The position numbers were made by a program, and so were the translations under genes. A DNA stretch of 60,204 nucleotides. It comes from Desulfobacteraceae bacterium. Its GTDB lineage: Bacteria > Desulfobacterota > Desulfobacteria > Desulfobacterales > UBA11574. Of this stretch, positions 6,300 through 43,402 are shown piece by piece. The DNA lies in assembly GCA_030604635.1 (NCBI GenBank), contig JAUVVL010000001.1, positions 1-60,204 on the forward strand, read 5' to 3'. Numbering within the stretch: position 1 is the first letter of the stretch; each line of letters starts with the position of its first letter. The notes beneath the pieces were generated by a model. The model was not told the origin of the DNA and made no database searches. It saw only the letters and a program-made list of their open reading frames with translations.

Positions 6300-6322
6300 T
6301 TTGCTTGGCTCTCCTTCGGGTT

Positions 6323-9079: not shown

Positions 9080-9080
9080 A

Positions 9081-12261: not shown

Positions 12262-12301
12262 TGATTAGAGTTTTGACATCGAATTAAAAGGAGGGTTTAT
12301 T

Positions 12302-26347: not shown

Positions 26348-26920
26348 TTAGAACCTAAGGCGGACGTGATCAATAGAATCCCAGTAATGTGGCTGCACGA
26401 AGTCTTCTATTAGATTCCTCAATTTGTCATAATGTTCAAACCATATCTCTGCATCATTACTATTATTAAAGGTCCATGGTATGTCAGGGCACAAACCGTA
26501 ACACCAACTGTCGTTAATCGTTCTTTCCGTAGCCCACAATTTAATTCCATATTTTTCGGGCTGACTCGCAAATTCTGTTCCCTGGTTCACAGATAATATT
26601 TCCGGTTCAATGGCGTCCACCATAGGCAATACTTTTTCAATTGCTTGTATTTGGTCATCAAGCTGCTTTTCTGTTGCGTCGGGAATAAATAATAATAACC
26701 CCAAAATCACCTTAACATTCTTCGAAAGGTTGATGACGGCGTTGATATTATTTTCTGTATTCACTCCCTTGTTAAGAATACGTAAAACTCCGTCATTTAA
26801 TGATTCAGCCCCGAGAAAAACGTCGGTACATGGCGATTCAGTCAGCAACTCCTCAATCTCTGCAAATATGGTAAAATTTGGTCTATCAGAATTTTGGTGG
26901 TTTTCGTTTGCTTTTTTTTT
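26348..26920 (-). pseudogene. 5'-truncated radical SAM gene (C-terminal two thirds only)
   Basis: IFAEIEELL..VFLGAESLNDGVLRILNKG. No CxxxCxxC cluster region, and the frame closes with a stop at ~26921. Confidence 0.6.
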
Positions 26921-27002
26921 AACTTAAACAGCTAGCGCACCCCCCTTCCCGCGCCGAGACTGCAGGGAGGGCATGCGATCAGTAGCAGTGGTCAACTTTC
27001 CA

Positions 27003-28418
27003 CTATTTGGCAGAGGAAGAAGCAGTCATAGGATAAGGTTTATTTTCGGTCTCTTGCTTATCAATCTGTTGTTGCTGAGTGGTAAAAGTCGTGTGAGTGT
27101 AGTTCGCATCAATGACTTTGGTATGTGCGAGAGGACGACGCACTGACTCCGGCGCTACTCCGGCCTTGAGAGCGTTCATCACACCAACCGCTTCCCAGTA
27201 ATTTTCCACCACAAAAAATTTGCCGGGCGCGAATGGCAATTCTTCGAGATTATTCTTCATTCGATTTTTGTTTTCTTTTACAGCTATAACAGGGATGCCC
27301 TGTTCAAGCGCTGCCAGAGTCGGCAGACCTACGCATCTATCCGGGATGACGAGGCAGGAAATATCTGTGGCAGTCAGAATACCAGAGTTACCATGTGTCG
27401 CAGGATTATTAATAATCCTCGGGCTCTTGTGGAGTCCCTTTAAAATACAATGAAGATAAGTTGTGGATATAGCTTCTGCAGATTTACGGGGGTCGACAAC
27501 ACCTACATCTAAGTTGAGGATTTTACGTGAACCTGCCATTGGAGAGTGGGCTGAAGGGACATCGAACATTAGCGATATTGCATGAGTAAGCATGGCTTCA
27601 ACACCGCCCCATGGATTTACCATATCACCATTTTCATCACGAAAATAATCTAAATGAAAGTTTTCAGGAACTTTGATGTTTGAAGATAATGCAACAGCGT
27701 CATATTGTGAACTATGCTCTTTTAAGATTTCATATAAATATTCAAGATATTCTATCCGCCCGACCGCCCTACCAGAACTAGAATAAAGAGATCGCATTAG
27801 CATTTTGTCATCCATTTTTACTACAAGAGGCAAGTCAAGCCCCATTGCTGCTCTGGCCGCTGATGCAGAATTAATGGCCGCTTCATTGAAGAATGCATCC
27901 GAGTTGTCATCAATAACCAACATGATACGATTCGAGCGTACTTTTTGAAGACCAATCGTCCCCATCATTAAACGTGTAATTACACTACCTTCAACATAGA
28001 GTGTATTTTCCGTTAATTCGTTAATATCGGCTGCGTTGACTACATTGGGATGTGTAATAAGATTGTCGCATGCCGATGCTATAAATCTAGCCAAAGCGCC
28101 GCCATCACCGGAATGTCCTCCAACATCAGCGCCAATACCTGTTGGAACAAGTAAAACTACATTAAATTGATTTACGTCTTCAAAATAACGTTTTTCAAAA
28201 TTGAAAATATGATTTTCGGGTGGAATTTTATATTTACCAAAATCTGAAAGTACTCCTAACTCACAATAATAGTTGTCCCGATCTGTTCGTGTAATGACAA
28301 ACCGAACAGGAATTTTATCTTGCGTCAGTTGATCAGATATTTTGTTTGAAAAGTACTCAAAAGTTTGATTAGCTTCTTTATTCCTTGGAATGGTGATTTC
28401 TTTTTCATTCAGGATCAT
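27003..28418 (-). CDS. DUF3326-like protein with an ~85-aa N-terminal extension
   Basis: 471 aa. LLVPTGIGADVGGHSGDGGALARFIASACDNLITHPNVVNAADINE matches my memory of the DUF3326 signature. Starts 3 nt after the upstream gene. Confidence 0.6.
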   Translation of the reverse strand: MILNEKEITIPRNKEANQTFEYFSNKISDQLTQDKIPVRFVITRTDRDNYYCELGVLSDFGKYKIPPENHIFNFEKRYFEDVNQFNVVLLVPTGIGADVGGHSGDGGALARFIASACDNLITHPNVVNAADINELTENTLYVEGSVITRLMMGTIGLQKVRSNRIMLVIDDNSDAFFNEAAINSASAARAAMGLDLPLVVKMDDKMLMRSLYSSSGRAVGRIEYLEYLYEILKEHSSQYDAVALSSNIKVPENFHLDYFRDENGDMVNPWGGVEAMLTHAISLMFDVPSAHSPMAGSRKILNLDVGVVDPRKSAEAISTTYLHCILKGLHKSPRIINNPATHGNSGILTATDISCLVIPDRCVGLPTLAALEQGIPVIAVKENKNRMKNNLEELPFAPGKFFVVENYWEAVGVMNALKAGVAPESVRRPLAHTKVIDANYTHTTFTTQQQQIDKQETENKPYPMTASSSAK

Positions 28419-28421
28419 TTT

Positions 28422-28793
28422 TTATTTCCTTTCAATCACATGAGAGTTGACAATTTCACCCTTAAACCAATCAGCAGAAAATTTTATTGCAGCATCTGCA
28501 TCGAAATCTTTGCATGAAAATATATTTATATACGCTTTTTTTAACAAGTCTAAAGTGTGAATCGTAATATTGCTCGTCAAGATGAATTGAATGGCAGAAG
28601 TCCCTTTCAAATGTGGTTCAGTCTGGCATTCTTCAGGTGGCAGGCCATGATCATCCCACCAAGACAACTTGCATCGCTCCATATCAATTAAGTCGCACAG
28701 TTTACGAAAATAATCTCTAATATTCTCTCTCGTAAATGTCACTGGGTCGCAATAATGTAGATCCAGGATCAATTCCTTCCCATATGGTTTCAT
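28422..28793 (-). CDS. S-adenosylmethionine decarboxylase-like (type 1 pyruvoyl proenzyme family) protein
   Basis: 123 aa. GKELILDLHYCD, ILTSNITIHT (position of the ES|H self-cleavage motif) and AYINIFSCKDFD (FTC-like). Confidence 0.65.
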   Translation of the reverse strand: MKPYGKELILDLHYCDPVTFTRENIRDYFRKLCDLIDMERCKLSWWDDHGLPPEECQTEPHLKGTSAIQFILTSNITIHTLDLLKKAYINIFSCKDFDADAAIKFSADWFKGEIVNSHVIERK

Positions 28794-28853
28794 ATTATCA
28801 ATACAATCCTATTTTATTCGAAAACAAAAAGTAAGGTGTTTAATAGAAAATCA

Positions 28854-30383
28854 TCATTTCTTAGAATGTTTATCAAACCACTCATCTAGTGACATTTTCT
28901 TGCCTTTGGCGTATTCGACATAGATTTTATCATCTATACATTTAACCGGATACTCGCGCTCGCTTAACTTCTGTCCTTCAAAGCTAACAGAGGGTAAAAA
29001 GGCCTTGTCGCCCGAATCTCTGAAAAATTGAATGAAGTGTTTCTTCTCGTTCTTCTCGGCTGTCATCTTGATACTCTTTATTGCGTAAACCTGGCGCTTG
29101 CCAGTCATTTCACTATGAGACTGCCTTAATGAATAAAACCTACACAACTCCTCGGCTTTCCTCTTGAAAAATACACCTAAATCATGGTGCTCAGCAACCT
29201 CATATCCAATAAAGATGTCGATGTCTTTGCCATTGCTTGATCTGTCGAATGCTATCGATGCCTCGGCTGTTGTGTCATGGTATTTTCGAGTTAACATTGG
29301 ACGCCCGTACCGAGAGAACTCCTCCAATTGGTCTGCAATGATGAGAATGTCGGCAAGGCTATTTAGAGATTCCAAATGGGTGAAATCGAACTCGTGTTGT
29401 GCGATTGCAAAAAGAATGTCGCCACGTATTATGTTATCTACGGCTTCTTCGTCATCTAAACCCCACTCCTCAGCCGCGCCTCGCACTGACGTATCCGCAA
29501 AGATACCAAGAATCTTGTAAATCAGGTATGAACTCATGATACCATGTTGTTTTTTTTCAAGTGCCCGGCAAAGCCTCCAATATGTTGAATCATCTCTATA
29601 ACATTTTATCAGCACTTGCTTTGTATCACTGCTGGGTACAATTCTTACATCCATTGCCATCAGTTCGAGGAACTGCGAGGCTATATAATGATGTTCAATG
29701 TCTAAAGTATATCCGATGCGCCTAAATCTTGGGATGTCGAAAAATTCCAGAACCCCTTGCACTTTTTCGTTGAGTTTATCAAGTTTAGCAAGAGAATACC
29801 CCAAATCATGGCATAGCGCCATCAAACACCATATGGCATCTTTCCTATCGTTGACCCCCTTACAGATTTCCTCCTCCCTTTCTCTGGCTTCGGCCAAAAG
29901 GCTACGCACGTCCAAGGATGTCTCACTTTCAATGTCATTGTACAAATACCAGTTGAGACTGTCTTGTTTCTCAGGCAGGTGATCCCTAAGGATATGTTCC
30001 CCTATGAAATATACCCACAACGAGTGAAGCGTATGATCTCTATAATAGGGCTCCAAGCCATACAATATTTCTTCGAAGCTCGTGGCAGCATCGAGGTAGT
30101 TAAATAACTTCGAGTTTCCTTTTGAATCGATGTCAATAGCATTTAAAGCGGAACTTGCCAGTTCCTGCCACAGGCCTCGGCCTTTTTTATGAGCATCCTG
30201 CCAGTCTAAATTTGTGCTCAAATCACCTTTTTTTGAAGCTTTTGAAAAATCAGATATTAAATCGTTTAAAAGTTGTAAAATATTTTGTTGCTCCGGAGTG
30301 TTTTTCTGTAAGAACTGGATCTTATCTTTTTTAACCAAATTTTGATAATTTTTTAGCAGTTCAAGCACATTCAGCTTTTTCAT
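28854..30383 (-). CDS. HD-superfamily phosphohydrolase, distantly dGTPase/SAMHD1-like
   Basis: 509 aa. YRDHTLHSLWV (His), LMALCHDLGY (HD) and ILIIADQLEEF (Asp). Confidence 0.7.
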   Translation of the reverse strand: MKKLNVLELLKNYQNLVKKDKIQFLQKNTPEQQNILQLLNDLISDFSKASKKGDLSTNLDWQDAHKKGRGLWQELASSALNAIDIDSKGNSKLFNYLDAATSFEEILYGLEPYYRDHTLHSLWVYFIGEHILRDHLPEKQDSLNWYLYNDIESETSLDVRSLLAEAREREEEICKGVNDRKDAIWCLMALCHDLGYSLAKLDKLNEKVQGVLEFFDIPRFRRIGYTLDIEHHYIASQFLELMAMDVRIVPSSDTKQVLIKCYRDDSTYWRLCRALEKKQHGIMSSYLIYKILGIFADTSVRGAAEEWGLDDEEAVDNIIRGDILFAIAQHEFDFTHLESLNSLADILIIADQLEEFSRYGRPMLTRKYHDTTAEASIAFDRSSNGKDIDIFIGYEVAEHHDLGVFFKRKAEELCRFYSLRQSHSEMTGKRQVYAIKSIKMTAEKNEKKHFIQFFRDSGDKAFLPSVSFEGQKLSEREYPVKCIDDKIYVEYAKGKKMSLDEWFDKHSKK

Positions 30384-30397
30384 TTATTCACCTGAAT

Positions 30398-31177
30398 TTA
30401 TGGCAATATAATTTCATTGGCCCAGTCAAGAGCGTCTTTCCAAATAAGATCTAGCGCACGATAATGCAGCTCAAGTAAATCTGACTTGTCTTTTATCCAC
30501 CATTCGCCTTCCAACTTACCACTCGATTGAATCATTCCGTGTTGATTAATCTCAAAGGATATAAGCGGTTTATCCTCAAGTCCATCGCATTTTGATATCC
30601 TTTGGCACCTTTCACAAGTTTTTGGATCTTTCGAATTTGGATAAATACAATCCGAGAAACACAGCGTTCTGCTGGTACCATAGATAATACTTCCCTTAAT
30701 ATTACTCTGTCCATCACGTTCTGATGCCACTACGGTAAAATCAATATAAAATTTCAGACTATTGAAATCGAACTCGATTCGCTCTGGTGCAATAGCTACC
30801 ATGCTTCGTTTTTTCTGTTCACTACTTGGAACGGCCAAAATTAAAATATCAGTTATATCTTGCTCAAATTTTTCATTTTCAGGCGTAAGGTTCAGTGTAA
30901 ATTTCTTGTCATTTGGATTAATTCCCTTTTTTATCTTACCATTTTTATTTATATAGCCTTTTTTCTTTAATTCCTTCCAGATTTCCTCTGATTTTTTATC
31001 GTCTATCCCTTCAATCTTTGAAAAAGCTTGTTTTGGAACAGTCACAATTATATCTTTAAGAATAGTTCGGGCATTATCTAATTGTCCTTTTATTCCTTTT
31101 ACTTTTTTATCGACTGCATCTAATCTGTTTTTTGCCTTTTTGCTCTTTCCTGTGGGTTTATATGGATCTTCTGTCAT
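30398..31177 (-). CDS. Hypothetical Lys-rich protein with a C-terminal Cys cluster
   Basis: ATG at 31177 follows GGAAGGGGGG (the track ORF extends to 31258 and overlaps the helicase). CFSDCIYPNSKDPKTCERCQRISKC. Confidence 0.6.
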   Translation of the reverse strand: MTEDPYKPTGKSKKAKNRLDAVDKKVKGIKGQLDNARTILKDIIVTVPKQAFSKIEGIDDKKSEEIWKELKKKGYINKNGKIKKGINPNDKKFTLNLTPENEKFEQDITDILILAVPSSEQKKRSMVAIAPERIEFDFNSLKFYIDFTVVASERDGQSNIKGSIIYGTSRTLCFSDCIYPNSKDPKTCERCQRISKCDGLEDKPLISFEINQHGMIQSSGKLEGEWWIKDKSDLLELHYRALDLIWKDALDWANEIILP

Positions 31178-31230
31178 CGTAGTCCCCCCTTCCATTAATT
31201 GAATCATTTTCTTATTTTGTTCCCGTATCT

Positions 31231-34023
31231 TCAATTCACAGTCTGAACGCCAACGCACTTGTGTCGGACATTGATAACCGCGTCATAGTCTGAACGGATC
31301 TTTGCTTCATGATTCCTAGTGAACATTTTTAGTTTATCCGCATTAAACAATATAGGTTCTAATGATTCAACCTTTTTAAAGTCTTTATGAAGCAGAAAAT
31401 CCAAATCGTCTGGAACTTCTTTTCCATCAATAACAAAACTCTGATACAGCTCTCGTCTGGTTCCATCCTCAAATTCAATCGTAAAAAGATGTCGAGATGT
31501 CAGGCATGGGGCTACACCATCACATTTTATATTCGACAATTCACCGGATACGGATTCGCTCTTATAGAAGTCTAATAAAGCATCTATAAGCGTGTGCCCG
31601 ATCCCGAGTAAATCCACATTTTTTTTGCGGGTAGCGGTTTTCCTGGAAAAGGTAACGTTTTCATATCGAGATGCCACGTCTGAATATTTCCTTAGCGCAG
31701 GAGGAACAACAATTTGAATAATATCTCCAGAGGGGATGAAGCTTCCTCCCAGGCGCAAGATCGCCTTTTCCGTGAATCGTTTCAAATCTTTAAGCGTAAA
31801 CTTCCCTTCTAGCTCTCTGTAGTATTCCAGGTTGAATGTTGATAGGTCCTGTGTAAGCTGCAAGAGGGCTTGGCTGGCATCTTTCGCTGCCTCGATGGCT
31901 TCGGTGATCTCTTGCTCAGTTCTTTCGTAGTCTCGATATAGAAGGGCCTCCCTGTAGAGAGATGTGTAATTTGTGCTTGATCCTAATAATCCGAGTATCT
32001 CCGACCGGAAATCCTCACTTACGTCACCTGTGACAGCATCTACTTTACCAATGGTCGTTGCTATCTCCAAAAGTTTTTCCTCGAGAATTGCGTAAACCTT
32101 TTCTTCTATGGTTCCTTCAGCAACAAGGTGATACGCCTGAACTGTATCGGCTTGGCCGTATCTATGGATTCTACCAATACGCTGTTCAACAGCCATAGGA
32201 TTCCACGGCAGATCATAGTTGAATAGAATTCTACAAATCTGAAGGTTGATTCCCTCGCCTCCTGCAGAGGTGGAGATGAGGAACTGTGCGCCATTCTCAT
32301 CCCAGAAAGATTCACAAGATGCAATTTTATCCTCCAATGGCCCACCTCTTACAATTGCTATCTTCTCAGGATCATAGTATTTACCTATCTCGTCTTGAAG
32401 GAAATAGAGAGTTTCAAGGTATTGGGTAAAAATGATCATCTTTTCATTCTTATGTTCCCTTCTGATTTGTTCAATAGCTCGAATTAATGTGTCAAATTTC
32501 CGGTCAGGTCCTTCGTCCACAAGGTCTATAAGTTCTTTTATTTTTTCCTCCTCATCAGGGATATTGGCCGCGGCTTCAATGATTCCTTCTCCCGATTCCA
32601 TAGCATCCAGAGCCCAATGGGTGACTTCTTCCTTAAACCGGGGCCTTTTCATAAGACGCTGTTTTAGTCTTGTGATATATGAATCAGCTTCCGTATAGTC
32701 AATGATAGACTCTCGATAGGACAGTAACTCAGCAACTATTCTCCGCATCTCTTCCTGATAATTAATGATTTTAGATGAGATTTCCGGCCTGGTTATCGCG
32801 CCATATGCACCACTTTCGAGAGACATCTGTTTGCGGGCGTAAAGTGCAATCAGGCGCCGCCTCAATGCCTGTTTGATGGCCCTTGGACTGGAGGACATAA
32901 TCTTCTGAAAAGTAGCCATCACAAAGCCCACTGCGCGCTGTTGTTTAGTGGTTTTGTCTTTTCCTGCGCCGGCAGCATCGTAACCTTCTTTAAGATATTC
33001 GGTAAGTCTATCGTAAAATCTCTGCTCACGCATGGAGAGTTGAAATTTTTGGGTGTGCACCTGTCTCCGCATGAAAATCGGATCGCCCTGGGCATCTGTA
33101 ACTTCCTTTTTTGTACGCCGAAACATTACCCTGCCCAGGAGACCTCTGTGATCCATCATCGCCTCTGGTTCTTCAAAAAGCTGATCATCCAAAAGTTGAA
33201 TCAAGGACCAGAATTGGTAAGCATTCCCCTGGTGAGGAGTAGCTGTCAGAAAAAGGAAATCCCGGGCTTTTCCCTTGATTTTCTCTGCCAGTCGATAATT
33301 CTGGGTGATATCTATTTTTTTGCCGTATCGCTTCCTGCTCAAATGATGGGCTTCATCAAAAACAATCAAGTCCCAGTCCGGACCTTTCATCATTTTTTCC
33401 AAACGTTGTGGTTTTTTGATCGTGTCTATGGAAACAATTACTAAACTGTGTCGTTCCCACACATGAGGATTGGTATCGGAAAAGTCCCGGCCGAAGATGT
33501 CAAAAAAAATCCTGAAACAATCCTTCATTTCATTCTGCCAGTTAACGGTAAGACCTGCGGGGCAAATGACCAGTATTCTCCTTGCTTCTCCACGTGCTAA
33601 AAGCTCCTTAATAATCATTCCCACTTCAATGGTTTTCCCCAGGCCCACTTCGTCGGCAATCAAGTATTTTCGCCTACGGGAGCTGACAATCTGATGGGTT
33701 AACAGAATCTGGTGAGGAAGGAGGTCTGTTTTACTATTGGAAAGTTCACCCCCGGAATTTTCAAGGGGTAGCTGGTATGCTAATTGTTTCAGAAAAAAGT
33801 CTGTGGGATGATCAGATTCACCGTTTTGATACCGCTGAAAGATATCAGCGACAGGCGTAAGACTACCCTGGGGAAAGGTTTCTAAAAACCGCTTTCCGTC
33901 TTTTTCAAAAACCACGTCAACCTGGTATTCTCCACCTGATGCTTCTGCAACCTGGAGCACCTCGCCGGTACCCAGTTCAGGACGGTATGTGACTCTTACT
34001 TTTGTATCTTTTTTGATTTGCAT
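31231..34023 (-). CDS. SNF2-family helicase/ATPase with an N-terminal Tudor/SH3-like domain
   Basis: 930 aa. LLPHQ, LIADEVGLGKTIEVG, VFDEAHHL, FLTATPHQG, STSAGGEGINLQ, YDLPWNPMAVEQRIGRIHRYGQ. Confidence 0.92.
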   Translation of the reverse strand: MQIKKDTKVRVTYRPELGTGEVLQVAEASGGEYQVDVVFEKDGKRFLETFPQGSLTPVADIFQRYQNGESDHPTDFFLKQLAYQLPLENSGGELSNSKTDLLPHQILLTHQIVSSRRRKYLIADEVGLGKTIEVGMIIKELLARGEARRILVICPAGLTVNWQNEMKDCFRIFFDIFGRDFSDTNPHVWERHSLVIVSIDTIKKPQRLEKMMKGPDWDLIVFDEAHHLSRKRYGKKIDITQNYRLAEKIKGKARDFLFLTATPHQGNAYQFWSLIQLLDDQLFEEPEAMMDHRGLLGRVMFRRTKKEVTDAQGDPIFMRRQVHTQKFQLSMREQRFYDRLTEYLKEGYDAAGAGKDKTTKQQRAVGFVMATFQKIMSSSPRAIKQALRRRLIALYARKQMSLESGAYGAITRPEISSKIINYQEEMRRIVAELLSYRESIIDYTEADSYITRLKQRLMKRPRFKEEVTHWALDAMESGEGIIEAAANIPDEEEKIKELIDLVDEGPDRKFDTLIRAIEQIRREHKNEKMIIFTQYLETLYFLQDEIGKYYDPEKIAIVRGGPLEDKIASCESFWDENGAQFLISTSAGGEGINLQICRILFNYDLPWNPMAVEQRIGRIHRYGQADTVQAYHLVAEGTIEEKVYAILEEKLLEIATTIGKVDAVTGDVSEDFRSEILGLLGSSTNYTSLYREALLYRDYERTEQEITEAIEAAKDASQALLQLTQDLSTFNLEYYRELEGKFTLKDLKRFTEKAILRLGGSFIPSGDIIQIVVPPALRKYSDVASRYENVTFSRKTATRKKNVDLLGIGHTLIDALLDFYKSESVSGELSNIKCDGVAPCLTSRHLFTIEFEDGTRRELYQSFVIDGKEVPDDLDFLLHKDFKKVESLEPILFNADKLKMFTRNHEAKIRSDYDAVINVRHKCVGVQTVN

Positions 34024-34056
34024 TTAAGAGATGATATCAGTTCCTATTGCTAAAAT

Positions 34057-34731
34057 TTAACAAAATGAGAAAAACACATGAAACAGAGTTATCGGTTTTC
34101 CGACCGAGGGTCTGTTATGTTTTGAGCGGTAACAATTATCGAGATTCGTTAAGTTATCAACATGTTTCCAGTTGCCATCAAAGCATAGCCAGAGCAACTC
34201 TGTGTTTTTTATAAACGTGTCATGCGCTTTTTTTGCCCAGTATGACGGTGTTTCCGATTGGACGTAACCTAACATCCCTGCCTCATCCTGTTCACGTGCA
34301 TAATTTCCGGAAAGGAACTGCCTCAACCCATCCGGCCCGAGATACTTGTCCATTTTAGCATGAGTTTGAGAAGAGAGCCTTTTGGCTTCGAAAGGGTAGC
34401 GTGGATGCTTGCCGGCGCCTGTACGTTCAAATTCGATGTCCAGCTTAAGGCGTCGTTTTCCTAGCCTCCCAGGAGCATTGATTCTAGGATCGTCATGTAT
34501 TGCATAATAATGAGTCCATGAGGGACTTAAACGATCTTCTATCACATTCCTGATCTCTCTTATGAGTTCACCTGTAATATCTTCTTCCTCGGAATCCTGG
34601 AAATCCGGGGAATCAAGACGTTCATATCCCAGCCTAAGCAATTCAAAGACTTGTCTGCGAAAACTTTTATGATATTCGTGTCGATCATCAGAAGCGCTTG
34701 TGCGTACTTGAAAGCCACTGCTTATAGTCAT
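34057..34731 (-). CDS. PD-(D/E)xK-like putative nuclease
   Basis: 224 aa. IHDDP...LKLDIEFERTGAGKHPRYPFEAKRL (D-x17-E-x-K). Its ATG abuts the MTase stop (TAGATG). Confidence 0.45.
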   Translation of the reverse strand: MTISSGFQVRTSASDDRHEYHKSFRRQVFELLRLGYERLDSPDFQDSEEEDITGELIREIRNVIEDRLSPSWTHYYAIHDDPRINAPGRLGKRRLKLDIEFERTGAGKHPRYPFEAKRLSSQTHAKMDKYLGPDGLRQFLSGNYAREQDEAGMLGYVQSETPSYWAKKAHDTFIKNTELLWLCFDGNWKHVDNLTNLDNCYRSKHNRPSVGKPITLFHVFFSFC

Positions 34732-37700
34732 CTATTTGGTATCTCCGGTCATGGTCAGCTTTTCGGCAATGAATTCATCTGCATCAATGAGAGCCTGACT
34801 CTTAAGCCAGGAAAGTCTTTGCAGCGGTTTTGCAAAGCAAGTAGTGCGGCCTTCAAATAGCTTGAGATTCCGGTTAAAATATATCCACTGCCCCTGTTCC
34901 CTTAAAAGACTCTCTCTGATCCTTTTGAACTCTTTTTTTGTGTCCTGATCTTCAACCCTGACAACACTCACCGGACCAGCAGGCGGTTTTCGGGAATGTT
35001 CTATTTTTGCAATAGCTAAATCATTTGAATAGAAAACCGTAATGCGATGCTGATCTTTTATATCGCCGTTCAGAAAACTATCAAGTTCCGCTTTTAATAC
35101 ATTTGCGTATGCGCGCATTTCTGTTTCATCTGCTGGCATAGTGGCCTCTTTAGCTATCCTGCCTTCGTTCAGGTTTTTACGCACATGGAGCAAATCCTGA
35201 ATCAGCCAGCGTTCGCTCTGATTAATACCCATAAGGGCATAGACTCTTTCGTTTAACTGTTCCAGCAATGGCAAAGCATCAATCATTTCTTTACGCGGGT
35301 CGAATAGCGTATTTTGTGATTCCCTTGAAGTTGCCCGGACGAGTTCATCATGTAAAGATACCCATTCGGAAAGCTCATGGGAAGACAGATCATCAAGTGG
35401 AATTGGAAGATTCTCTATATCGCTATTGTTTGCGCGATCCCGTTCAATTCCCAATATTGGGGATGATAGAAATTGATGATAGATGAAAAAATCAGAGGCG
35501 AAATATAGAGCTAACGCCTTTAATAGGCTATTATCTCCAGGACTTCCAGCAATACCGATTTGTCTGTGCGGAACTACGATAAATTCGTCTGAAAACACAG
35601 CAAACCTTCGCGCCGCATCAACAATAATGTGTGGTGGATAGCATGCTTTTAGCGGTGTTTTCCCGCGCCCCTTTCTTACATAGGCTCTTGAAGCTACTAC
35701 AGGTTTCAACGCCTCTTTGGGAAACGCAAATATTCTACCGCACTTACTCAGCACACTCATATCTAGTTCAAGTTTGCCTTCTATTTCCGCCAAAGGTTCT
35801 ACTGGTTCTTTAGCATATTTTGTGCGAAGAACAATGCCCTGATGTATTATCAGTCGATGTTGGGCTTTGAATTCAGAAAACGATGGATAACGTTTTTGCA
35901 GGCTATTCAAAAGGTGTTTATCCCGCACAGAGCCCCACATAGCGAGCTTCCATGGCAGACTATCTCCCGAGGCTGCATCCATACGAGAAACCTCACGAAT
36001 TTCATCGGCATTGACGATAATGATCCATAGCTTTTTATCTTGCCTGTTATCAACCTGATACCGTGATAATTGATGAACAGCAAATGGGGCAAATGTAACG
36101 ATATGATGAGACGAGCAGTTATTGTCTTCTTGCCGAATAGAGTAAAAAAATGCTGCCGCGGGGCTTGTAGAGCCTTGAAATATAAGATGCCGGAGATTGG
36201 AAAAATTCACAATAGACCAGACGTCCATCCGGTCGAAAAATTGCTGCCTGAATTTTGTTGCATGTGTTTTGAACAATGTAACAGCAGGCAATAACAAGCC
36301 TACCACTCCCTGGCTGGAAAGATGTCGCGTTACTTCCCAGGCAAAGGCTTCGGCTATCTGATTATCGCTGGTTGGAAATTGATCTTTATTTTTCTTAATC
36401 CAATCAAGGGCAGACTTATCGCCTTTCTCTAGTTTATTAGCTTTCAGTTGTTTCCATGGAGGATTGCCAACGATCCAGTCAAAGCTGTTCCCTGGCTTGT
36501 TCTCCTCCCATTCCGAATTCGGCTTGAAAAAGCCGTCCTTACAACAAAAGATGTTCTGATTACGCAAAGCAGGCAGTTTAAATTTTTTATACCCCGGTTT
36601 TTCAAGGTCAGGAGGGCTAACATAATCAAGAAGTGTGAGGATAAGGCTGAGTTCTGTTACTCCGCATGCATCCTCGTCCACGTCCATGCCATAGATGTGG
36701 TTGGTCATTAGATACCGCAATTCGGAAGGTTGAAGCCGTTTTTCAGGATTCTTTGTTTGTTCTCGCTCAACAAGCCTTCTATAGCATTGGACCAGGAATG
36801 CCCCTGAACCGCACGCAGGATCAAAGGCTTTCATGCCCTTTTGGAATGGGCGTTTTGAGTCAAGTTCATCCAGGACAAAATTTACTAAATGAATAGGGGT
36901 GTAATAGGCGCCCTGACTTCTTCCCTTTCCTTCAGCGTGAAGAAACTGCTGATATACAATAGAAAGGGTCTCTATCGGAATATACTCAAAGTTGTATGCC
37001 TTGAAATCCAGATGCATCTGATCGGATTTGGGATCGTCGCCGAGGAAAACAGACGATACTTTTTGGATATGTTCAACTTTAGGGGCAGGCCGACCTTTTC
37101 TTGGAACAGGAAAAACGACTCCATTCAGCCAATCTTCAAGCCTATCGTTAACCGCATAAAAGCCCTCAATAGTCGAGTTGCGACCAAAAACCGATTCTTT
37201 ATCAATCGACCATTGCTCCAGCTTGCGATCTGAAAGGATTTTTCTATCTCTTAAATAATATAGGTATACAAACTTGCCGATAAGAGCGTGAGCCGTGTGT
37301 CGGGGCAATCCATTGCTGCGCAGCCATGTACCAAGGGACCTGAGACTTCCAAGTAATCTCCTGTCAACCCTCTTATTTTGAGGAATCTCTTTCTCCCATC
37401 TCGTCCACAGGTCCCCTTTGTTAATTGAGTCGGATGTAAAATCAGAAAGCTTTTCAAGGACTTCGTTTGTCCTCTTTGCGACTTTAAGAATGGATTGATT
37501 TTTGTCCTCACTCAATCTGGGGTCAAACTTGAAGCCAGGATAAAGACGAATAGTTTTTGGCGTTAGAACAATAAGAAATGGGACGATATTCTGATTCCAA
37601 ACCAGTCTGTGAAATTCTCTTGCCTTTTGCTCCGTGTCTGCCTCACATACATACACCACGGGAATTATAGATTCATGTGAGGGATGATTTCTCTCCGGTG

Positions 37701-37851
37701 TTTTTAATGTATAAACGCCGTGCAAGTCGCATTTTTCACTGGCAAGACGAAATATGTGGGAGTAACCTGGGTGCTCGTAAAGACGCTCACCTGAGAGATA
37801 ATATGGAGAATCAGTATAGTTCAGGCATCTTATAAGGTGATCTATATCCAT
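34732..37851 (-). CDS. Large gamma-class N6-adenine DNA methyltransferase (type IIG/IIL or PglX-like architecture)
   Basis: 1039 aa. GAYYTPIHLVNFVLDEL, FDPACGSGAFLV (motif I), IYGMDVDEDAC and WIVGNPPW (motif IV), with long N- and C-terminal extra domains. Confidence 0.85.
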   Translation of the reverse strand: MDIDHLIRCLNYTDSPYYLSGERLYEHPGYSHIFRLASEKCDLHGVYTLKTPERNHPSHESIIPVVYVCEADTEQKAREFHRLVWNQNIVPFLIVLTPKTIRLYPGFKFDPRLSEDKNQSILKVAKRTNEVLEKLSDFTSDSINKGDLWTRWEKEIPQNKRVDRRLLGSLRSLGTWLRSNGLPRHTAHALIGKFVYLYYLRDRKILSDRKLEQWSIDKESVFGRNSTIEGFYAVNDRLEDWLNGVVFPVPRKGRPAPKVEHIQKVSSVFLGDDPKSDQMHLDFKAYNFEYIPIETLSIVYQQFLHAEGKGRSQGAYYTPIHLVNFVLDELDSKRPFQKGMKAFDPACGSGAFLVQCYRRLVEREQTKNPEKRLQPSELRYLMTNHIYGMDVDEDACGVTELSLILTLLDYVSPPDLEKPGYKKFKLPALRNQNIFCCKDGFFKPNSEWEENKPGNSFDWIVGNPPWKQLKANKLEKGDKSALDWIKKNKDQFPTSDNQIAEAFAWEVTRHLSSQGVVGLLLPAVTLFKTHATKFRQQFFDRMDVWSIVNFSNLRHLIFQGSTSPAAAFFYSIRQEDNNCSSHHIVTFAPFAVHQLSRYQVDNRQDKKLWIIIVNADEIREVSRMDAASGDSLPWKLAMWGSVRDKHLLNSLQKRYPSFSEFKAQHRLIIHQGIVLRTKYAKEPVEPLAEIEGKLELDMSVLSKCGRIFAFPKEALKPVVASRAYVRKGRGKTPLKACYPPHIIVDAARRFAVFSDEFIVVPHRQIGIAGSPGDNSLLKALALYFASDFFIYHQFLSSPILGIERDRANNSDIENLPIPLDDLSSHELSEWVSLHDELVRATSRESQNTLFDPRKEMIDALPLLEQLNERVYALMGINQSERWLIQDLLHVRKNLNEGRIAKEATMPADETEMRAYANVLKAELDSFLNGDIKDQHRITVFYSNDLAIAKIEHSRKPPAGPVSVVRVEDQDTKKEFKRIRESLLREQGQWIYFNRNLKLFEGRTTCFAKPLQRLSWLKSQALIDADEFIAEKLTMTGDTK

Positions 37852-37995
37852 TAAGTGTGCCCTCCGTTCAAGGAAATAGCCTAATCAAAGCTTAAAACTA
37901 AACCTTTATCACATACAATCACTTTTAGTAAACATCCGTTCTGTTTAAGCTCTATGAAGACGGTTAAAGAAGTTTAATATCTCTACGCACTATTG

Positions 37996-38649
37996 TTATC
38001 TAAATTCCCTGCAAACCCATATAACTTTTCCAATAATGCGTACTCTGTTGATATCCTCATTCTCCAAATAAAGAGATTTATATTTAGTATTATCACTAAA
38101 CAAGACGAGTCCTTTCGGATGTTTTTCCACCCTTTTAACCATGATAGTGTCGTCGATTCCCACTGCATAGACAGCACCGGCCAATACATCTTTCTGGGCC
38201 TCATCAATAAGTACGGTATCCCCCTCTCTGAATTCCGGCTCCATGCTGTTGCCGAAAATATCCAGCAAAACCATTTTTTCAGCAGTCCCTTTTCTTGACA
38301 GCCAGTCCATTCTAAAGGAATAATATCCTTCGATTTCAGATCCGACTTCAAAAGAACCGCCGCCTGCACACAGCCTGGCTTTCACCTTGGGGACCTTTTT
38401 GAATTCAGATTCATTTGTACTGAAGGATTTAATGAAAACAGGGCCGATCCCCTCTTCAAGCCAATTGGGATTTAGACCATATTTGCGATAAAGCAGCAAG
38501 ATCCACCTGGCCGGAATTGAGTCCTTTTTACGGGCCTGGGTAATGGCTGACGGGTTGATTCCGAGAGCGGAAGCCAGCTCATTTTGATAGCGAAAGCCCG
38601 TAGCCTCGTAAACCTTATGAATAAAAGCGTCAAATCGAGTAAGGGGCAT
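37996..38649 (-). CDS. LexA/CI-like repressor (XRE HTH + S24 peptidase)
   Basis: 217 aa. QNELASALGINPSAITQARK (HTH), GNSMEPEF (Ser) and IMVKRV (Lys). Confidence 0.88.
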   Translation of the reverse strand: MPLTRFDAFIHKVYEATGFRYQNELASALGINPSAITQARKKDSIPARWILLLYRKYGLNPNWLEEGIGPVFIKSFSTNESEFKKVPKVKARLCAGGGSFEVGSEIEGYYSFRMDWLSRKGTAEKMVLLDIFGNSMEPEFREGDTVLIDEAQKDVLAGAVYAVGIDDTIMVKRVEKHPKGLVLFSDNTKYKSLYLENEDINRVRIIGKVIWVCREFR

Positions 38650-38685
38650 GAGGTTTGATGCATCCGTGTTAAAAAATAAATATAA

Positions 38686-38720
38686 TTGATATTTATAAAT
38701 TAAGATTTTATAAATATCAA
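38686..38720 (-). promoter_or_regulatory. Perfect 14-bp inverted repeat TTGATATTTATAAA-N7-TTTATAAATATCAA, 36 nt upstream of the S24 repressor start. Candidate operator.
   Basis: Read directly from the sequence, in an AT-rich promoter-like region. Confidence 0.6.
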
Positions 38721-38868
38721 GTTTTTTTCAAAAGAAAGTACTATTTACATTGAAAATACGATTTTCTTAGGTCTACGTTTTTGGTGTAAAAATTGACGGT
38801 TTGAGGTTTGTAAAGAGTGCTATTTTTCGGTTTTACTTCAGCAAATCAATACGTTAGTTTGATGCGAG

Positions 38869-38997
38869 TTAAAAGACCAGAAAGCGGCACAGCCAGGGAC
38901 TCTGAGCCTGTAGAGCTGCTCGCCACCTAAGCACCGCGCCACTACCCAGTTCGGGACGATATGGAACTTTTAGTTTTGTATCTTTTTTGATTTGCAT
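38869..38997 (-). pseudogene. Degenerate 5' remnant of an SNF2 helicase gene, paralogous to the start of 31231-34023
   Basis: MQIKKDTKLKVPYRPELGSGAVL versus MQIKKDTKVRVTYRPELGTGEVL. DNA similarity extends over ~100 nt by eye. It begins 13 nt after the stop of the 142-aa gene. Confidence 0.8.
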
Positions 38998-39010
38998 TTG
39001 ATAACGCCTA

Positions 39011-39439
39011 TCAACTCGATAGATTAAAGCTGGTAGTGTAAACCGGGAATCCTCTAATTTCCTGTTTTCTGGGAGTGCCAAAAATGAAATCAAGCGGGAA
39101 AGTCTCCCCTCGATATTCCACCCAAAAAGAGTCTCCCTTGACCAGCCTCCCTTTGCAAACGATCTGAACCTCGATTTTTTTCTTTTCAAGATCAGTTGCC
39201 GCGGATTGAAGGACTTTATGGATATCAAGGGCAACGGCGTGTCGCTTTTCCCGTTCCGCTAGATAAAGAACATCATCAATGCCCACAACCATGAAAGAAG
39301 AATACCTTGATAGCCCCTCAGACCCGGCATTAAGTTCCCGAAGAAAATCAAGAAGACCGATCTTTATCTCGTAAGGAGCTATACCATCTTCTCTATAAAG
39401 CTTCAGATATTTTTGTTCCAGGATTTCATAGCCTTTCAT
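39011..39439 (-). CDS. Small hypothetical protein coupled to the DUF1156 methylase
   Basis: 142 aa starting at MKGYEILEQ. Its ATG lies 1 nt after the methylase stop (TGAGATG). Confidence 0.6.
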   Translation of the reverse strand: MKGYEILEQKYLKLYREDGIAPYEIKIGLLDFLRELNAGSEGLSRYSSFMVVGIDDVLYLAEREKRHAVALDIHKVLQSAATDLEKKKIEVQIVCKGRLVKGDSFWVEYRGETFPLDFIFGTPRKQEIRGFPVYTTSFNLSS

Positions 39440-39440
39440 C

Positions 39441-42419
39441 TCAAACCTCAATGATATTGAGTACTTTGTTGATTGGTCCCTGAAAAGTAGGGTTTTTATC
39501 CAGCAGATACTCAAAAGAAACCCGGATATTGGGGATAACAGGCTTAAACTCGTTTAGCCACGGAACCAGGTTTTCGCCTGCCTCGGCAAGACCCATCAGG
39601 TAATGGAGAACATCGACCAGGGCCACGTTATCAAATTTGGCCTCCTCCAATTCAGGAAAAAGCAAGAGCTGGCTCAGGCTTTTAAATTTGCTTTTAAACA
39701 ATTTGGCCAGATCCGTATAGCGTTCATTCGGAAGCTTTACCTCGTAAGTCCTGCCTCGTTTGGCCCGGCCTTTTCTGATAACACCGGCTTTAATAAGAAC
39801 CTCGGGCTCCATAATGCCCCTGGTAGTCTTATGCACTTCATCACTTTTGATCTCTTTCCTGTCACAAAGACAGGTGAGATATATGTAACTTGCCGGATCA
39901 ATATGCTCAAGCTCCGAAGGGAGGGGCTGTTGAGTGGTGACGATCTGCTCCACCATCATCCGTATGGATGTAAGAGCTTCACCAAGAGGTACAACAGCGC
40001 CTTTATAGTCCACGATCATTCCATAATGCCTGCTGTAAAGTTCAAGGCATTTGCCAATGAGGATGATGTTGACGTCGTCCGGAGAAAGTTTTTCTTTGCC
40101 ATATCTTCCGGCCTCTATCATCTCAATTTCTTTACGGGCTTTCTTGCGAATTTCTTCTCTGACCCCGGCCCAGGATCGCTGCCGGGTCTCTGATTGACCA
40201 TTGCGCTTTTTACAGACATGGATAAGATCGTAGGCAATGGACTGTTTTCCCATGAGGTGGAGGGAACTTTCAGATTCTCCGTGTATGGGATATATCGCTT
40301 CAATCACAAAACCCGCATTACAGAGAGAATCCAAAAGGGATTCCCAGGCGCTCCCTTCCCTGTGATGGAAAGTAAACACCATTAAGCCGTCATCTTTCAG
40401 ATTTTCACAGCACCTTCGCCAGGCTTCTGTAAGACCTTCTTGATAGTCTGATGCGGTTTTCCCACGGGTTGGGTTTTCAATAATTTCTTCAGCCTTGGGG
40501 GTGATTTCCGGAGCAAAATGCGGGTATGTTCTTGAAAGAATCAGCCTCAGCCAGACATAGAAGAAATCAGCAAGTTCGGAGTAGTTGACGTTTCCGGCAT
40601 AGGGAGGATCTGTGATTACTAAATCTGCTTTTAAGGGGAACTTCATGTTTTGAGATGTTGTACAGTCAAGTGCACAATTTCTCCGAGTGCCCTGAATTTT
40701 TTCTTGTGAATTTTCAAAAACACTCTTATTGCCTATGATCTTTCGGTCAAATGGTTTTAAGTTATAATTTTTTCCTCTAATGATAGCATCAAACAAGGAA
40801 ATAAATGTTCCCATTCCTATTGAAGTTCCCCAAACGTTACTTTCACATATCGTTGCCTTGGGTTGAAAATCATGCCGAGCAAAAATCTGTCTAATACAAT
40901 CTCGTTGCCAAATATAGGTACAAAAGTCACTCATATTATTCAAAAGATTATAAAACCCGCTCAACAACATCTCCTTCAAAACTTGGTTCTCTTCTTCCCC
41001 AATAGCCGCAAGCAGCGTACTCAGGCACAACAACTGCCTGGAGTTGAACATCTGATGCCAATATGCATAGTGATGCTCTAACAACCTATGCGTTTCTTGT
41101 CCGTCTGGAATTTCACTCTTCGGATAAGGCAGCCTGTCCTTTTCCTCTCCCCACCTCCTCTCTGCATTCTGATATTTTTTGAGATCAGCAGGTGTGATCC
41201 TTTTGAAGAATTTGCCTCTGTTATTATGGATATTGCATTGATGTGCTATTATTTTCTTATGTTTCAAAAGGTCTCCATGTATATCCAATTCTTCTTTATC
41301 CCCCGCGCATTCCGCACAATAACCCTCTACAGCATAAGGCCTGGTTGGAAGGAGTTGATTCTCGGGAAGCTTTCGGATGGAATTAATAATCTTATCCTTG
41401 GTCCCGCAGGAAGGGCAAATAAAAGCGCCTTTTCCTGTATTTCCCTGTAAAGGCTTGCAGCTTTTTGAACAAACAGGACAAGACACCTCTTCCGGCAATG
41501 TTCCACGATACTGCCAGACAGCATAGCAGTGGGGGCACAATAAAATTGTTAGAGGAACCTTTTTCCTCGCCTTTTTTAAATTGTCTGGATTTGAACCATG
41601 CAAATTGTTGGTTTGCGCACACCAGGGACACTTGACGCTATATTCGATCGAATTATACGGCGCCCAACGCCTGTTGTTTCTTTCCTTTCCGACCGCATCC
41701 CTTGCATTATTTATCATCATGGATTTTTCGGCGACTAAAGATGCCATATCCATATCCAGATCGAATGTTTTTTTGCATTTGACGCATTGATAATCCGGCA
41801 AATAGCGGACGGAGGGGGACTTTTTGGCAATAATGTAATTTGGAAACAAAGGAACTTCTTTAAGGCAGGTAGGGTTCGTACAGATAGCCGACTTGACCCA
41901 GAAAGTATATATGATATCAGCTTGTTCGCGACCTGCCCCGCAACAGGGACATTCGGTTTTGTAATGACCGAGAAGTTCTTCCTTCAAAGGCTTTCCACTT
42001 GAAGTGGTCCTCACCTCCAGCCTCTTGAATGCGGCCTTTAGCTCATCTATATCTACCGGCTCCACTTCGGTCTTTACAATGAACCACGCCACGGGGCTGA
42101 GATCGATGCCGGTGACGTGACAACCCAAACGAAGGGCCTCCACTATGGTGGTTCCTCCGCCCATAAACGGGTCCAATATCCTGACTCCGTTGGTATCGGG
42201 ATCATTGGTGTGATCCTTGTAAAACTCAGTCATTATATCTGTTCCGGCAGGTTTCATGGCGGCCAGCAGAATTGCTCGAAATACGCACGAAGCCCTGCGC
42301 GCAAACCATTTGTGCATCTTGTAAATAGGTTTAAAGGCGTTTCTTTCCGGTATGGCAAGCCGGTTGATCTCGACAACCGGGAAACTTTCTTCAATAGCCT
42401 TTCTAATGCTGTTTTCCAT
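39441..42419 (-). CDS. DUF1156-type adenine-specific DNA methyltransferase with Zn-ribbon insertions (PglXI-like)
   Basis: 992 aa. The N-terminus FPVVEINRLAIPERNAFKPIYKMHKWFARRASCVFRAILLA is DUF1156-like. DPFMGGGTTIVEA (motif I), multiple CxxC pairs, and VITDPPYAGNVNY (motif IV). Confidence 0.85.
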   Translation of the reverse strand: MENSIRKAIEESFPVVEINRLAIPERNAFKPIYKMHKWFARRASCVFRAILLAAMKPAGTDIMTEFYKDHTNDPDTNGVRILDPFMGGGTTIVEALRLGCHVTGIDLSPVAWFIVKTEVEPVDIDELKAAFKRLEVRTTSSGKPLKEELLGHYKTECPCCGAGREQADIIYTFWVKSAICTNPTCLKEVPLFPNYIIAKKSPSVRYLPDYQCVKCKKTFDLDMDMASLVAEKSMMINNARDAVGKERNNRRWAPYNSIEYSVKCPWCAQTNNLHGSNPDNLKKARKKVPLTILLCPHCYAVWQYRGTLPEEVSCPVCSKSCKPLQGNTGKGAFICPSCGTKDKIINSIRKLPENQLLPTRPYAVEGYCAECAGDKEELDIHGDLLKHKKIIAHQCNIHNNRGKFFKRITPADLKKYQNAERRWGEEKDRLPYPKSEIPDGQETHRLLEHHYAYWHQMFNSRQLLCLSTLLAAIGEEENQVLKEMLLSGFYNLLNNMSDFCTYIWQRDCIRQIFARHDFQPKATICESNVWGTSIGMGTFISLFDAIIRGKNYNLKPFDRKIIGNKSVFENSQEKIQGTRRNCALDCTTSQNMKFPLKADLVITDPPYAGNVNYSELADFFYVWLRLILSRTYPHFAPEITPKAEEIIENPTRGKTASDYQEGLTEAWRRCCENLKDDGLMVFTFHHREGSAWESLLDSLCNAGFVIEAIYPIHGESESSLHLMGKQSIAYDLIHVCKKRNGQSETRQRSWAGVREEIRKKARKEIEMIEAGRYGKEKLSPDDVNIILIGKCLELYSRHYGMIVDYKGAVVPLGEALTSIRMMVEQIVTTQQPLPSELEHIDPASYIYLTCLCDRKEIKSDEVHKTTRGIMEPEVLIKAGVIRKGRAKRGRTYEVKLPNERYTDLAKLFKSKFKSLSQLLLFPELEEAKFDNVALVDVLHYLMGLAEAGENLVPWLNEFKPVIPNIRVSFEYLLDKNPTFQGPINKVLNIIEV

Positions 42420-43399: not shown

Positions 43400-43402
43400 T
43401 TT

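Follow-up and report, generated by a model that had tools for sequence, protein, structure and literature searches.

Our study of a 60,204-nucleotide stretch of DNA from a Desulfobacteraceae bacterium (GenBank assembly GCA_030604635.1, contig JAUVVL010000001.1; hereafter the window) indicated that five minus-strand genes at positions 27,003 to 34,023 make up two units rather than one. The first gene of the run, encoding an SNF2-family helicase, is by homology and gene order the last member of a neighbouring Hma system, and the four genes downstream of it, encoding a protein with a Cys cluster (X), an HD-like hydrolase, an S-adenosylmethionine decarboxylase (AdoMetDC)-like protein and a DUF3326 protein, form a cassette of their own. 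We suggest that this cassette makes an amine and acts as an accessory to defence systems, a role proposed from association alone, and we place the probability of the statement as a whole at about 0.5. An earlier account drawn from the letters and open reading frames (ORFs) of the window (the sequence-only reading) had proposed one undescribed five-gene system, with effectors attacking nucleotide or S-adenosylmethionine (SAM) pools, and had offered as its alternative that the helicase goes with the genes upstream and the other four form their own unit; it is this alternative that the best PADLOC match of the helicase and its collinearity with a related contig favoured.

ORF calls agreed with the sequence-only reading in giving five complete minus-strand genes, head to tail, separated by 53, 14, 60 and 3 nt when X is started at its ATG. 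Pfam likewise agreed with the labels given to the SNF2, AdoMetDC-like and DUF3326 proteins. The G+C content of the four 1-kb bins between 27 and 31 kb was 0.431, 0.354, 0.435 and 0.357 (mean ~0.39), compared to ~0.43–0.44 in the surroundings; the AT-richness that had been noted by eye is real, and it is modest and patchy, being confined to two of the four bins. A promoter and terminator scan was uninformative, with counts close to those of shuffled sequence.

PADLOC, Pfam and NCBIfam searches with the five proteins assigned only the SNF2 gene to a named system. The 930-aa protein carries SNF2-rel_dom (3e-22) and Helicase_C (3e-18) domains, and its top PADLOC model was HmaA (9e-104), ahead of BrxH and DrmD. 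It fell below the NCBIfam DISARM_DrmD equivalog cutoff (352.8 vs 610 bits), and neither DrmA, DrmB or DrmC nor a full PglZ or BrxL was found among the neighbour genes by PADLOC and NCBIfam, which argues against a DISARM or BREX helicase. A DUF499-type ATPase, a DUF1156 methyltransferase and the SNF2 helicase lie on one strand, matching the AAA+ ATPase, N6-adenine methyltransferase and SNF2-type helicase expected of a type-2 Hma system. Hma was described by Payne et al., with embedded genes in 63 % of systems (bioRxiv 10.1101/2024.01.29.577857), and a 2026 paper in Nucleic Acids Research re-classifies it as a type-2 DUF499-centred BREX-related system (PMC12839542). The ‘BREX-like set’ of the sequence-only reading was, on this nomenclature, roughly right and can be named more precisely.

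The metagenome contig L100 was informative in this respect, as it carries HmaC, a 326-aa protein (p326), HmaB, p146 and the SNF2 gene as an uninterrupted array, followed by X, the HD-like gene, a decarboxylase, DUF3326 and a radical SAM gene. Positions 3–6624 of L100 are collinear with window 45522–38913 (76 % nucleotide identity) and positions 6539–9358 with window 34024–31204, the helicase being 79 % identical at the nucleotide level over its full length. In both the window and L100 the 326-aa gene occupies the position of the type-2 DUF3780 gene, and PADLOC gave it only weak PglZ matches (2e-5). Because the best PADLOC model is HmaA and the L100 array is uninterrupted, we assign the SNF2 gene to Hma; it is, on these comparisons, the HmaA helicase of an Hma/DUF499-centred BREX-related system and not a member of the cassette.

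Genomic contexts of the remaining four genes were collected by gene-neighbourhood look-ups, a scan of GTDB species genomes (73 loci) and a scan of JGI metagenomes (163 hits, 80 kept). Six-frame ORFs of the loci were labelled by phmmer and hmmsearch, and clustering of the HD-like proteins at 90 % identity gave 79 clusters. The downstream slot was resolved in 62 of these and in all 62 reads HD, decarboxylase, DUF3326, with a decarboxylase of AdoMetDC-like (AMDC) type in 53 clusters and of carboxynorspermidine decarboxylase (CANSDC) type in nine. An X homologue lies immediately upstream of the HD-like gene in 41 of the 79 clusters, and one clade, with longer HD-like proteins, has no X gene; a fused X domain was looked for inside these longer proteins and is not there. 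Homologues of the cassette genes were neighbours in every genome with enough flank, with two exceptions: L139, in which the decarboxylase–DUF3326 pair is inverted, and L157, in which the pair is absent. The inversion in L139 (3209–5064), relative to X and the HD-like gene, is consistent with a cassette of two two-gene units.

More than 299 homologues of the 509-aa HD-like protein were found across distant phyla, with identities of 50–95 %, all annotated as hypothetical. Hosts of the cassette include a Thermoplasmata archaeon, Desulfobacteraceae, Bacteroidota, Verrucomicrobia, Planctomycetota and Dehalococcoidia, with HD-protein identities of 45–95 %, and more distant HD homologues (24–31 % identity; Asgard archaea, Clostridia and others) occur without the partner genes. 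Searches of viral contigs and PLSDB plasmids gave no cassette copy. X and the HD-like, AdoMetDC-like and DUF3326 proteins gave zero matches in PADLOC-DB v2.0.0 at E ≤ 1e-3, and Pfam and NCBIfam returned only AdoMet_dc and DUF3326, in agreement with the earlier statement that no named defence system fits. The literature likewise held nothing joining AdoMetDC with anti-phage defence or placing DUF3326 in a defence context. By its conserved order and spread, X–HD–decarboxylase–DUF3326 is a self-contained, horizontally mobile unit that is unnamed and absent from PADLOC.

The decarboxylase slot gives the clearest view of the chemistry that the cassette may perform. The 123-aa protein of the window is matched by AdoMet_dc (PF02675) at 4e-13 over residues 8–122, with 50.0 bits against a gathering cutoff of 25, and it scores below the NCBIfam SpeH equivalog TIGR03330 (23.4 vs 75.65 bits). 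Of 14 aligned cassette homologues, 13 retain ILTS-x-I-x-IHT and NIFSCK as motifs, and all 14 have Ser74, His79 and Cys94. The residue preceding Ser74, the presumed pyruvoyl-forming residue, is Thr (T73) rather than Glu, with cleavage predicted at T73/S74. Because of this Thr and the score below the SpeH cutoff, the cassette AdoMetDC-like proteins are probably pyruvoyl-dependent decarboxylase paralogues with a changed substrate; arginine and ornithine decarboxylases are known as neofunctionalized paralogues of the AdoMetDC/SpeD fold (PMC10407285). No speE was found near any cassette.

In the nine CANSDC-type clusters, a gene for a ~390-aa decarboxylase dependent on pyridoxal 5′-phosphate (PLP) takes the place of the ~125-aa AdoMetDC-like gene, in the identical slot. 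This enzyme is a clear homologue of CANSDC (carboxynorspermidine/carboxyspermidine decarboxylase), as indicated by matches to PDB entries 9eaf (1e-82) and 3n29 (5e-63), compared to 1e-15 for diaminopimelate decarboxylases. On L100 the gene (11505–12659) lies immediately upstream of DUF3326; a CANSDC homologue was found in variant cassettes only, and the slot in the window holds an AdoMetDC-fold gene. AdoMetDC and CANSDC both decarboxylate a 3-amino-3-carboxypropyl group, borne on a sulfonium in SAM and on a secondary amine in carboxyspermidine. This non-orthologous displacement argues that the job of the slot is decarboxylation, and it points to polyamine-type biosynthesis rather than to the depletion of nucleotide or SAM pools that had been envisaged.

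The partner of the decarboxylase is a 471-aa protein with a DUF3326 domain (PF11805, 4e-90, residues 87–426) and an additional N-terminal alpha/beta domain (residues 1–86). Foldseek comparison of its AlphaFold2 model (pLDDT 77) against the PDB retrieved only generic flavodoxin-like and HAD folds (E ≥ 1.6e-3, TM ≤ 0.23 on the query), and PDB sequence and profile searches for the DUF3326 and HD-like proteins were empty save for a 30-residue match to an isochorismatase-family hydrolase (E 0.33). The idea of a Cys hydrolase taken from that match was dropped, as Cys362 is not conserved family-wide. The invariants across the family are D105, N125, E274, H291, E315 and Y407, from which no cofactor was identified. 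A natural fusion of an AdoMetDC-like protein to DUF3326 was found (P0244). Two other unusual proteins were observed: P0373, in which the C-terminal half of CANSDC runs into DUF3326, is probably a gene-call merge in a high-GC genome, and P0257 has a C-terminal extension of ~300 aa in which GYHAVH and ELQVTT look RelA/SpoT-like by eye, a likeness that tools did not confirm and that is not used as evidence here.

PavB, a member of the DUF3326 family, and the CANSDC-like PavA are both required for the triamine precursor of pavettamine, a hydroxylated polyamine (bioRxiv 10.64898/2026.06.12.731819). Because of this precedent, the displacement by CANSDC and the fusion of an AdoMetDC-like protein to DUF3326, we favour a polyamine-type chain extension, in which the decarboxylase–DUF3326 pair most likely makes an aminopropyl-type amine. 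The DUF3326 protein would be the functional counterpart of carboxy(nor)spermidine dehydrogenase (CASDH), joining an amine to a C4 amino-acid unit to give an N-(3-amino-3-carboxypropyl) intermediate. The decarboxylase would then strip the carboxylate to leave an aminopropyl-type amine, that is a polyamine, a step for which homology, displacement in the same slot and the natural fusion all speak. X and the HD-like enzyme would form a second pair, which could regulate, sense or process the amine product. No homologue of the CASDH of locus L041 was found in any cassette locus.

The second pair is made up of orphan families. X has no Pfam, PADLOC or NCBIfam match, and none of its 113 homologues is named or carries a Pfam domain. 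The family has a Lys-rich motif at the N-terminus and a conserved helix at the C-terminus, together with a variable middle and a Cys cluster, with FYIDF, IIYG, EDKPL and H.R.L..IW..AL.W.NE as conserved motifs. The Cys cluster after which the gene had been labelled, C-x3-C...C-x2-C-x5-C (five Cys), was confirmed in the X of the window and in 36 of 50 homologues.

The HD-like protein of the window has no Pfam, NCBIfam or PADLOC match of its own, and Pfam HD (PF01966) gave weak matches, below the gathering score throughout, in 10 of 30 close (best E 0.019) and 3 of 28 distant members (best E 0.0027). Invariant in close and distant members alike are R115-D116-H117, H120, H192-D193, H280, H330 and D351; these include the arrangement of ligands, H..HD..H..H..D, seen in two-metal HD enzymes. 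The AlphaFold2 model (pLDDT 82, pTM 0.88) has a C-terminal beta-rich domain; Foldseek found nothing significant for it in the PDB (best E 0.43), so that this check returned no significant match for either of the two modelled proteins, and PDB sequence and profile searches were empty. Comparison of the HD profile by hhalign with two genuine HD proteins from the fetched loci gave probabilities of <1 %. Nor was there support for a Dgt- or SAMHD1-like dNTPase in particular: the gathering score of PF01966 was not reached and the PDB searches gave no dNTPase similarity. The earlier label ‘dNTPase-like HD hydrolase’ is weakly supported in its HD part, by the sub-threshold Pfam matches and the invariant motif, and unsupported in its dNTPase part, and the 509-aa protein is probably an HD-like, two-metal hydrolase of an undescribed family.

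A distant HD homologue was also observed between speE and CASDH in two Acetatifactor genomes (L040, 355–12537; L041, 6602–17279), within a complete polyamine operon of the order SpeD, arginine decarboxylase, SpeE, HD, CASDH, CASDC, AguA, AguB. This placement is a lead from a single genus and is consistent with a polyamine-related role of the HD-like protein.

The association of the cassette with restriction systems is both frequent and varied. The gene immediately upstream of X, on the same strand, is the Hma helicase or another SNF2 helicase in the window, L089, L091, L096, L097, L100 and L004 (with L134), a type IIG enzyme in L002, L010, L081, L087, L109, L117 and L137, a type III Mod or Res gene in L083, L094, L099 and L104, and a type I M and S pair in L105. 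Methyltransferase or type I genes lie downstream of DUF3326 in the X-less cassettes L012/L085 and L018, type I genes follow DUF3326 in the X-containing L123, and L141 has a type I HsdR upstream, with a 221-aa ORF between HsdR and the HD-like gene. Gaps to the neighbouring gene ranged from −43 to ~730 nt and many were of −7 to 100 nt, as was often so for co-directional restriction–modification (R-M) genes. Among the clusters with at least 3 kb of flank, which were taken as informative, an R-M-type gene (Hma, type I, IIG or III) lay within 3 kb in 16 of 31, usually adjacent and co-directional, compared to 1 of 52 control loci of distant HD homologues (Fisher p = 8e-8), a contrast that is clear in direction and inflated in size because the R-M label set was drawn from the cassette loci themselves. 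The HD-like and CANSDC genes of L105 are separated by an inserted group (5691–8702) made up of an AAA_15/AAA_21 ATPase (433 aa), a 272-aa gene and, on the minus strand, a 192-aa ORF, an embedding of the kind described for defence systems by Payne et al. (bioRxiv 10.1101/2024.01.29.577857).

Two further observations concern these neighbourhoods. The genes embedded in L105 resemble the ATPase–effector pairs embedded in defence systems. In four X-less clusters a gene of the protein arginine methyltransferase type (PRMT-like) abuts the HD-like gene (L013, 9042–9959; L162, 5523–6563; L015; L157, 1550–2515), overlapping its start in L162, an arrangement that may represent a third cassette variant and hint at a guanidino- or arginine-related substrate.

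The same neighbourhoods bear upon the idea of a single five-gene system, in which the SNF2 ATPase would sense or translocate on foreign DNA and be coupled to nucleotide- or SAM-depleting effectors. The helicase does stand immediately upstream of X in the loci listed for it above, and one gene further upstream in L087, with a methyltransferase gene between, and an AdoMetDC fold could consume SAM. However, the helicase of L100 closes a complete Hma array, the cassette is found equally often behind type IIG, type III or type I genes or alone, no dNTPase similarity was found and the interchangeable decarboxylase is a CANSDC, which is not SAM-directed. The comparative data largely refute the five-gene system, which we regard as highly improbable.

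We instead propose that the cassette is a co-expressed accessory of SAM-dependent restriction-type systems and would act through a polyamine-like product. A bolder version, possible but tentative, is that it represents a new class of defence accessory, a four-gene unit on restriction systems, in which an aminopropyl polyamine would be made on site by a hitherto undescribed route. DUF3326 would carry out the condensation, and the decarboxylase would be the first of AdoMetDC fold to act on a carboxy-polyamine. The product would aid restriction or hinder phage DNA, and might for example counter phages that escape restriction through host polyamines or SAM depletion. Phages are known to draw on host polyamines in hypermodifying their DNA against restriction (PMC13458397), and this would be one plausible arena for the cassette.

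Several points weigh against the accessory role and the amine product. The reaction of DUF3326 is undefined even for PavB, the product is a prediction, and the AdoMetDC-like enzyme may in truth decarboxylate SAM, arginine or ornithine. No homology of X was detectable beyond the cassette, the HD assignment is sub-threshold with a model that has no structural neighbour, and the link of the HD family to polyamines depends on one genus. Furthermore, an R-M neighbour is lacking in about half of the informative contexts, and no defence-specific domain (nuclease, TIR, SIR2 or similar) was found in the cassette.

The main rival is an ordinary metabolic operon, a non-canonical route, independent of SAM, to spermidine, norspermidine or a similar polyamine, in which DUF3326 replaces CASDH and an AdoMetDC-fold or CANSDC enzyme decarboxylates, and which would lie near R-M genes through mobile islands and have no defence role. 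The CANSDC homologue in the decarboxylase slot, the PavAB precedent, the HD homologue within the Acetatifactor polyamine cluster, the contexts without R-M genes and the lack of copies among viral contigs and plasmids all fit such an operon. We consider it unlikely, as the cassette never occurs with other polyamine genes (speE, speB, aguAB or CASDH), is repeatedly joined to the 3′ or 5′ end of R-M/Hma operons across very short gaps, and is spread patchily across domains at high identity; it also contains two additional orphan genes with no obvious need in a polyamine route and, in L105, an embedded ATPase pair.

The tight operon linkage to diverse DNA methyltransferases, with a PRMT-like methyltransferase in four clusters, could alternatively be read as hypermodification of a macromolecule, in which an amino-carboxypropyl and then an aminopropyl group would be placed on DNA, X or a restriction subunit as a self-mark or as an activation step with the adjacent methyltransferase or restriction genes. 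The invariant Lys-rich N-terminal motif of X also speaks for this reading, and PLP decarboxylases and radical SAM enzymes tailor the thymidine hypermodification of phages with host polyamines (PMC13458397). This explanation is quite unlikely, as the cassette showed no sign of a DNA-binding, glycosylase, transglycosylase or kinase component, the CANSDC-type enzyme stands about as close to genuine small-molecule CANSDCs (1e-82) as would be expected among those, the partner methyltransferases are too diverse for one special substrate and the radical SAM gene is optional.

The two-plus-two layout (a 14-nt gap between X and HD, a 3-nt gap between decarboxylase and DUF3326 and the natural fusion of the latter pair), the separate beta-rich C-terminal domain of the HD-like protein and the defence-island context are also compatible with abortive infection by a signal and an effector. 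Upon infection, the decarboxylase–DUF3326 pair would make a small amine messenger that binds the C-terminal beta domain of the HD-like protein, with X as a partner, and switches on a nuclease or nucleotide-hydrolase activity. Amine messengers are, however, without precedent in defence, members of the HD family are also found on their own and within a polyamine operon, and Foldseek and PDB profile searches found no nuclease-type similarity; we judge this very unlikely.

Features of the five-gene region and its surroundings in the window, with the basis of each assignment
Feature	Position	Strand	Remarks
Radical SAM remnant, C-terminal 166 aa	26348-26848	minus	Identity to L097/L100 proteins
Recombination junction	26849-27002		Just 3′ of the DUF3326 stop; homology switch
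DUF3326 protein	27003-28418	minus	471-aa ORF
Probable AdoMetDC-fold decarboxylase paralogue	28422-28793	minus	123-aa ORF
Probable HD-like hydrolase	28854-30383	minus	509-aa ORF
Gene X (Cys-cluster protein)	30398-31177	minus	259 aa from ATG; 30398-31258, 286 aa, from GTG start
SNF2-family helicase	31231-34023	minus	930-aa ORF
224-aa protein	34057-34731	minus	Embedded block
Type IIG R-M enzyme	34732-37851	minus	Embedded block; Pfam/PADLOC
CI/LexA-like S24 repressor	37996-38649	minus	Embedded block; Pfam/PADLOC
Remainder of Hma/type-2 BREX-related system	38914-46063	minus	Context, outside the cassette
p146	39014-39451	minus	Part of the Hma array
HmaB/DUF1156 methyltransferase	39441-42419	minus	PADLOC HmaB 2e-41; NCBIfam DUF1156_antiphage below cutoff
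326-aa protein (p326)	42419-43399	minus	Between HmaC and HmaB
HmaC/DUF499 ATPase	43403-46063	minus	PADLOC DUF499 7e-14, HmaC 7e-9; NCBIfam DUF499_antiphage below cutoff

The downstream end of the cassette in the window is marked by a recombination junction. The closest AMDC-type cassettes (91–92 % nucleotide identity) match the window only from 30809 to about 27001–26978, and homology to the radical SAM gene of L097 and L100 starts at 26830–26848, which places the switch at about 26.85–26.98 kb and bears out the rearrangement junction that had been predicted at about 26.92–27.0 kb. At the junction, window 26900–26990 was observed to hold a G+C-rich inverted repeat, CCCTCCC...GGGAAGGGGGG, and then an A9 run, a sequence that may be a terminator or a site of recombination. 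Beyond it lies a remnant that is 71–74 % identical at the amino acid level to residues 280–445 of the radical SAM protein of L100 (458 aa) and 309–474 of that of L097 (474 aa). The remnant is without the N-terminal ~280–310 residues in which the Pfam Radical_SAM match of the full-length proteins begins, and its own Radical_SAM match is weak and covers the C-terminal part of the model only. The full-length radical SAM gene overlaps the DUF3326 stop in L097 and L100, and one AMDC-type cassette, L113, has the gene as well. From these alignments, the window looks like an L100-type locus in which the region from mid-X to the end of DUF3326 has been exchanged for an AMDC-type segment, with the loss of most of the radical SAM gene, which shows this gene to be dispensable.

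At the other side of the run, a 4.9-kb block (34024–38913) splits hmaB and p146 from hmaA in the window and is missing in the collinear L100. As the L100 array is uninterrupted, we read this block as embedded between p146 and the helicase. The first ~75–80 nt of hmaA are duplicated, with one copy at 34023 and an orphan copy at ~38995–38915, and so form a direct repeat around the insert. The DUF499/HmaC and DUF1156/HmaB genes, the type IIG enzyme and a HigB-like toxin with its XRE-M78 partner support the defence array that had been described around the five genes. The toxin (111 aa) and its neighbour, an XRE-HTH/Peptidase_M78 (ImmA/IrrE-type) protein of 365 aa, were found at the far edge of the island (46562–47994), and the boundary of the island is marked by the housekeeping GTPase genes engB and era from 48.9 kb.

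The 163 metagenome hits and 79 clusters show the cassette to be common among uncultivated bacteria and archaea of sediments and the subsurface, and annotation pipelines miss it because it is absent from every defence catalogue tested. If the proposed role is correct, it would give a function and a reaction to two orphan families, DUF3326 and the undescribed HD-like family, predict a new substrate class for the AdoMetDC fold and tie polyamine chemistry to the host side of restriction-based immunity. To our knowledge, polyamines have so far been placed only on the phage side, as putrescinyl- and diaminopropanyl-thymine, or regarded as a general threat signal.

Among known systems, the thymidine hypermodification of phages (putrescinyl- and diaminopropanyl-thymine; PMC13458397) likewise brings polyamines, PLP decarboxylases and radical SAM enzymes into the restriction arms race. 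However, it is encoded by the phage and needs 5-hmdU, a kinase and a Pplase transferase, none of which is present in the cassette, for which no viral copy was found. The Hma system itself is matched by the HmaC/DUF499, 326-aa, HmaB/DUF1156 and SNF2/HmaA genes of the window, including an embedded same-strand block as in 63 % of Hma systems; the cassette differs in being appended after hmaA rather than embedded, in lying outside the PADLOC models and in joining other R-M types also. HEC-07, a defence protein embedded in Hma, has an AdoMetDC-like fold in an Hma-associated gene, as in the window, but joins this fold to thioredoxin-like and RelE RNase domains in one polypeptide, whereas the AdoMetDC-like protein of the window is free-standing, keeps its catalytic residues and partners with DUF3326.

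With class 1 (SpeH-type) AdoMetDC/SpeD, the cassette protein shares the Pfam family, the ~125-aa proenzyme, the pyruvoyl Ser/His/Cys residues and horizontal spread; it differs in the Thr before the Ser, the sub-SpeH score and the absence of clustering with speE, speB, hss or speY, and its predicted carboxy-polyamine substrate is undescribed for this fold. Compared to the alternative route to spermidine through CASDH and CASDC (carboxy(nor)spermidine decarboxylase), the cassettes are without a saccharopine-dehydrogenase-type CASDH, have DUF3326 in its place and mostly carry an AdoMetDC-fold decarboxylase, yet the variant cassettes hold a clear CANSDC homologue and the common logic would be the formation of an amino-carboxypropyl amine followed by its decarboxylation. 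The pavettamine pathway has neither the HD gene, X, an AdoMetDC-fold enzyme nor a linkage to R-M genes, its PavA bears Rieske and hydroxylase functions and its PavC is a JmjC enzyme; despite these differences, PavA and PavB match the cassette in that a DUF3326 protein, similar to PavB at the level of the Pfam family, is encoded beside a CANSDC-type decarboxylase and works together with it.

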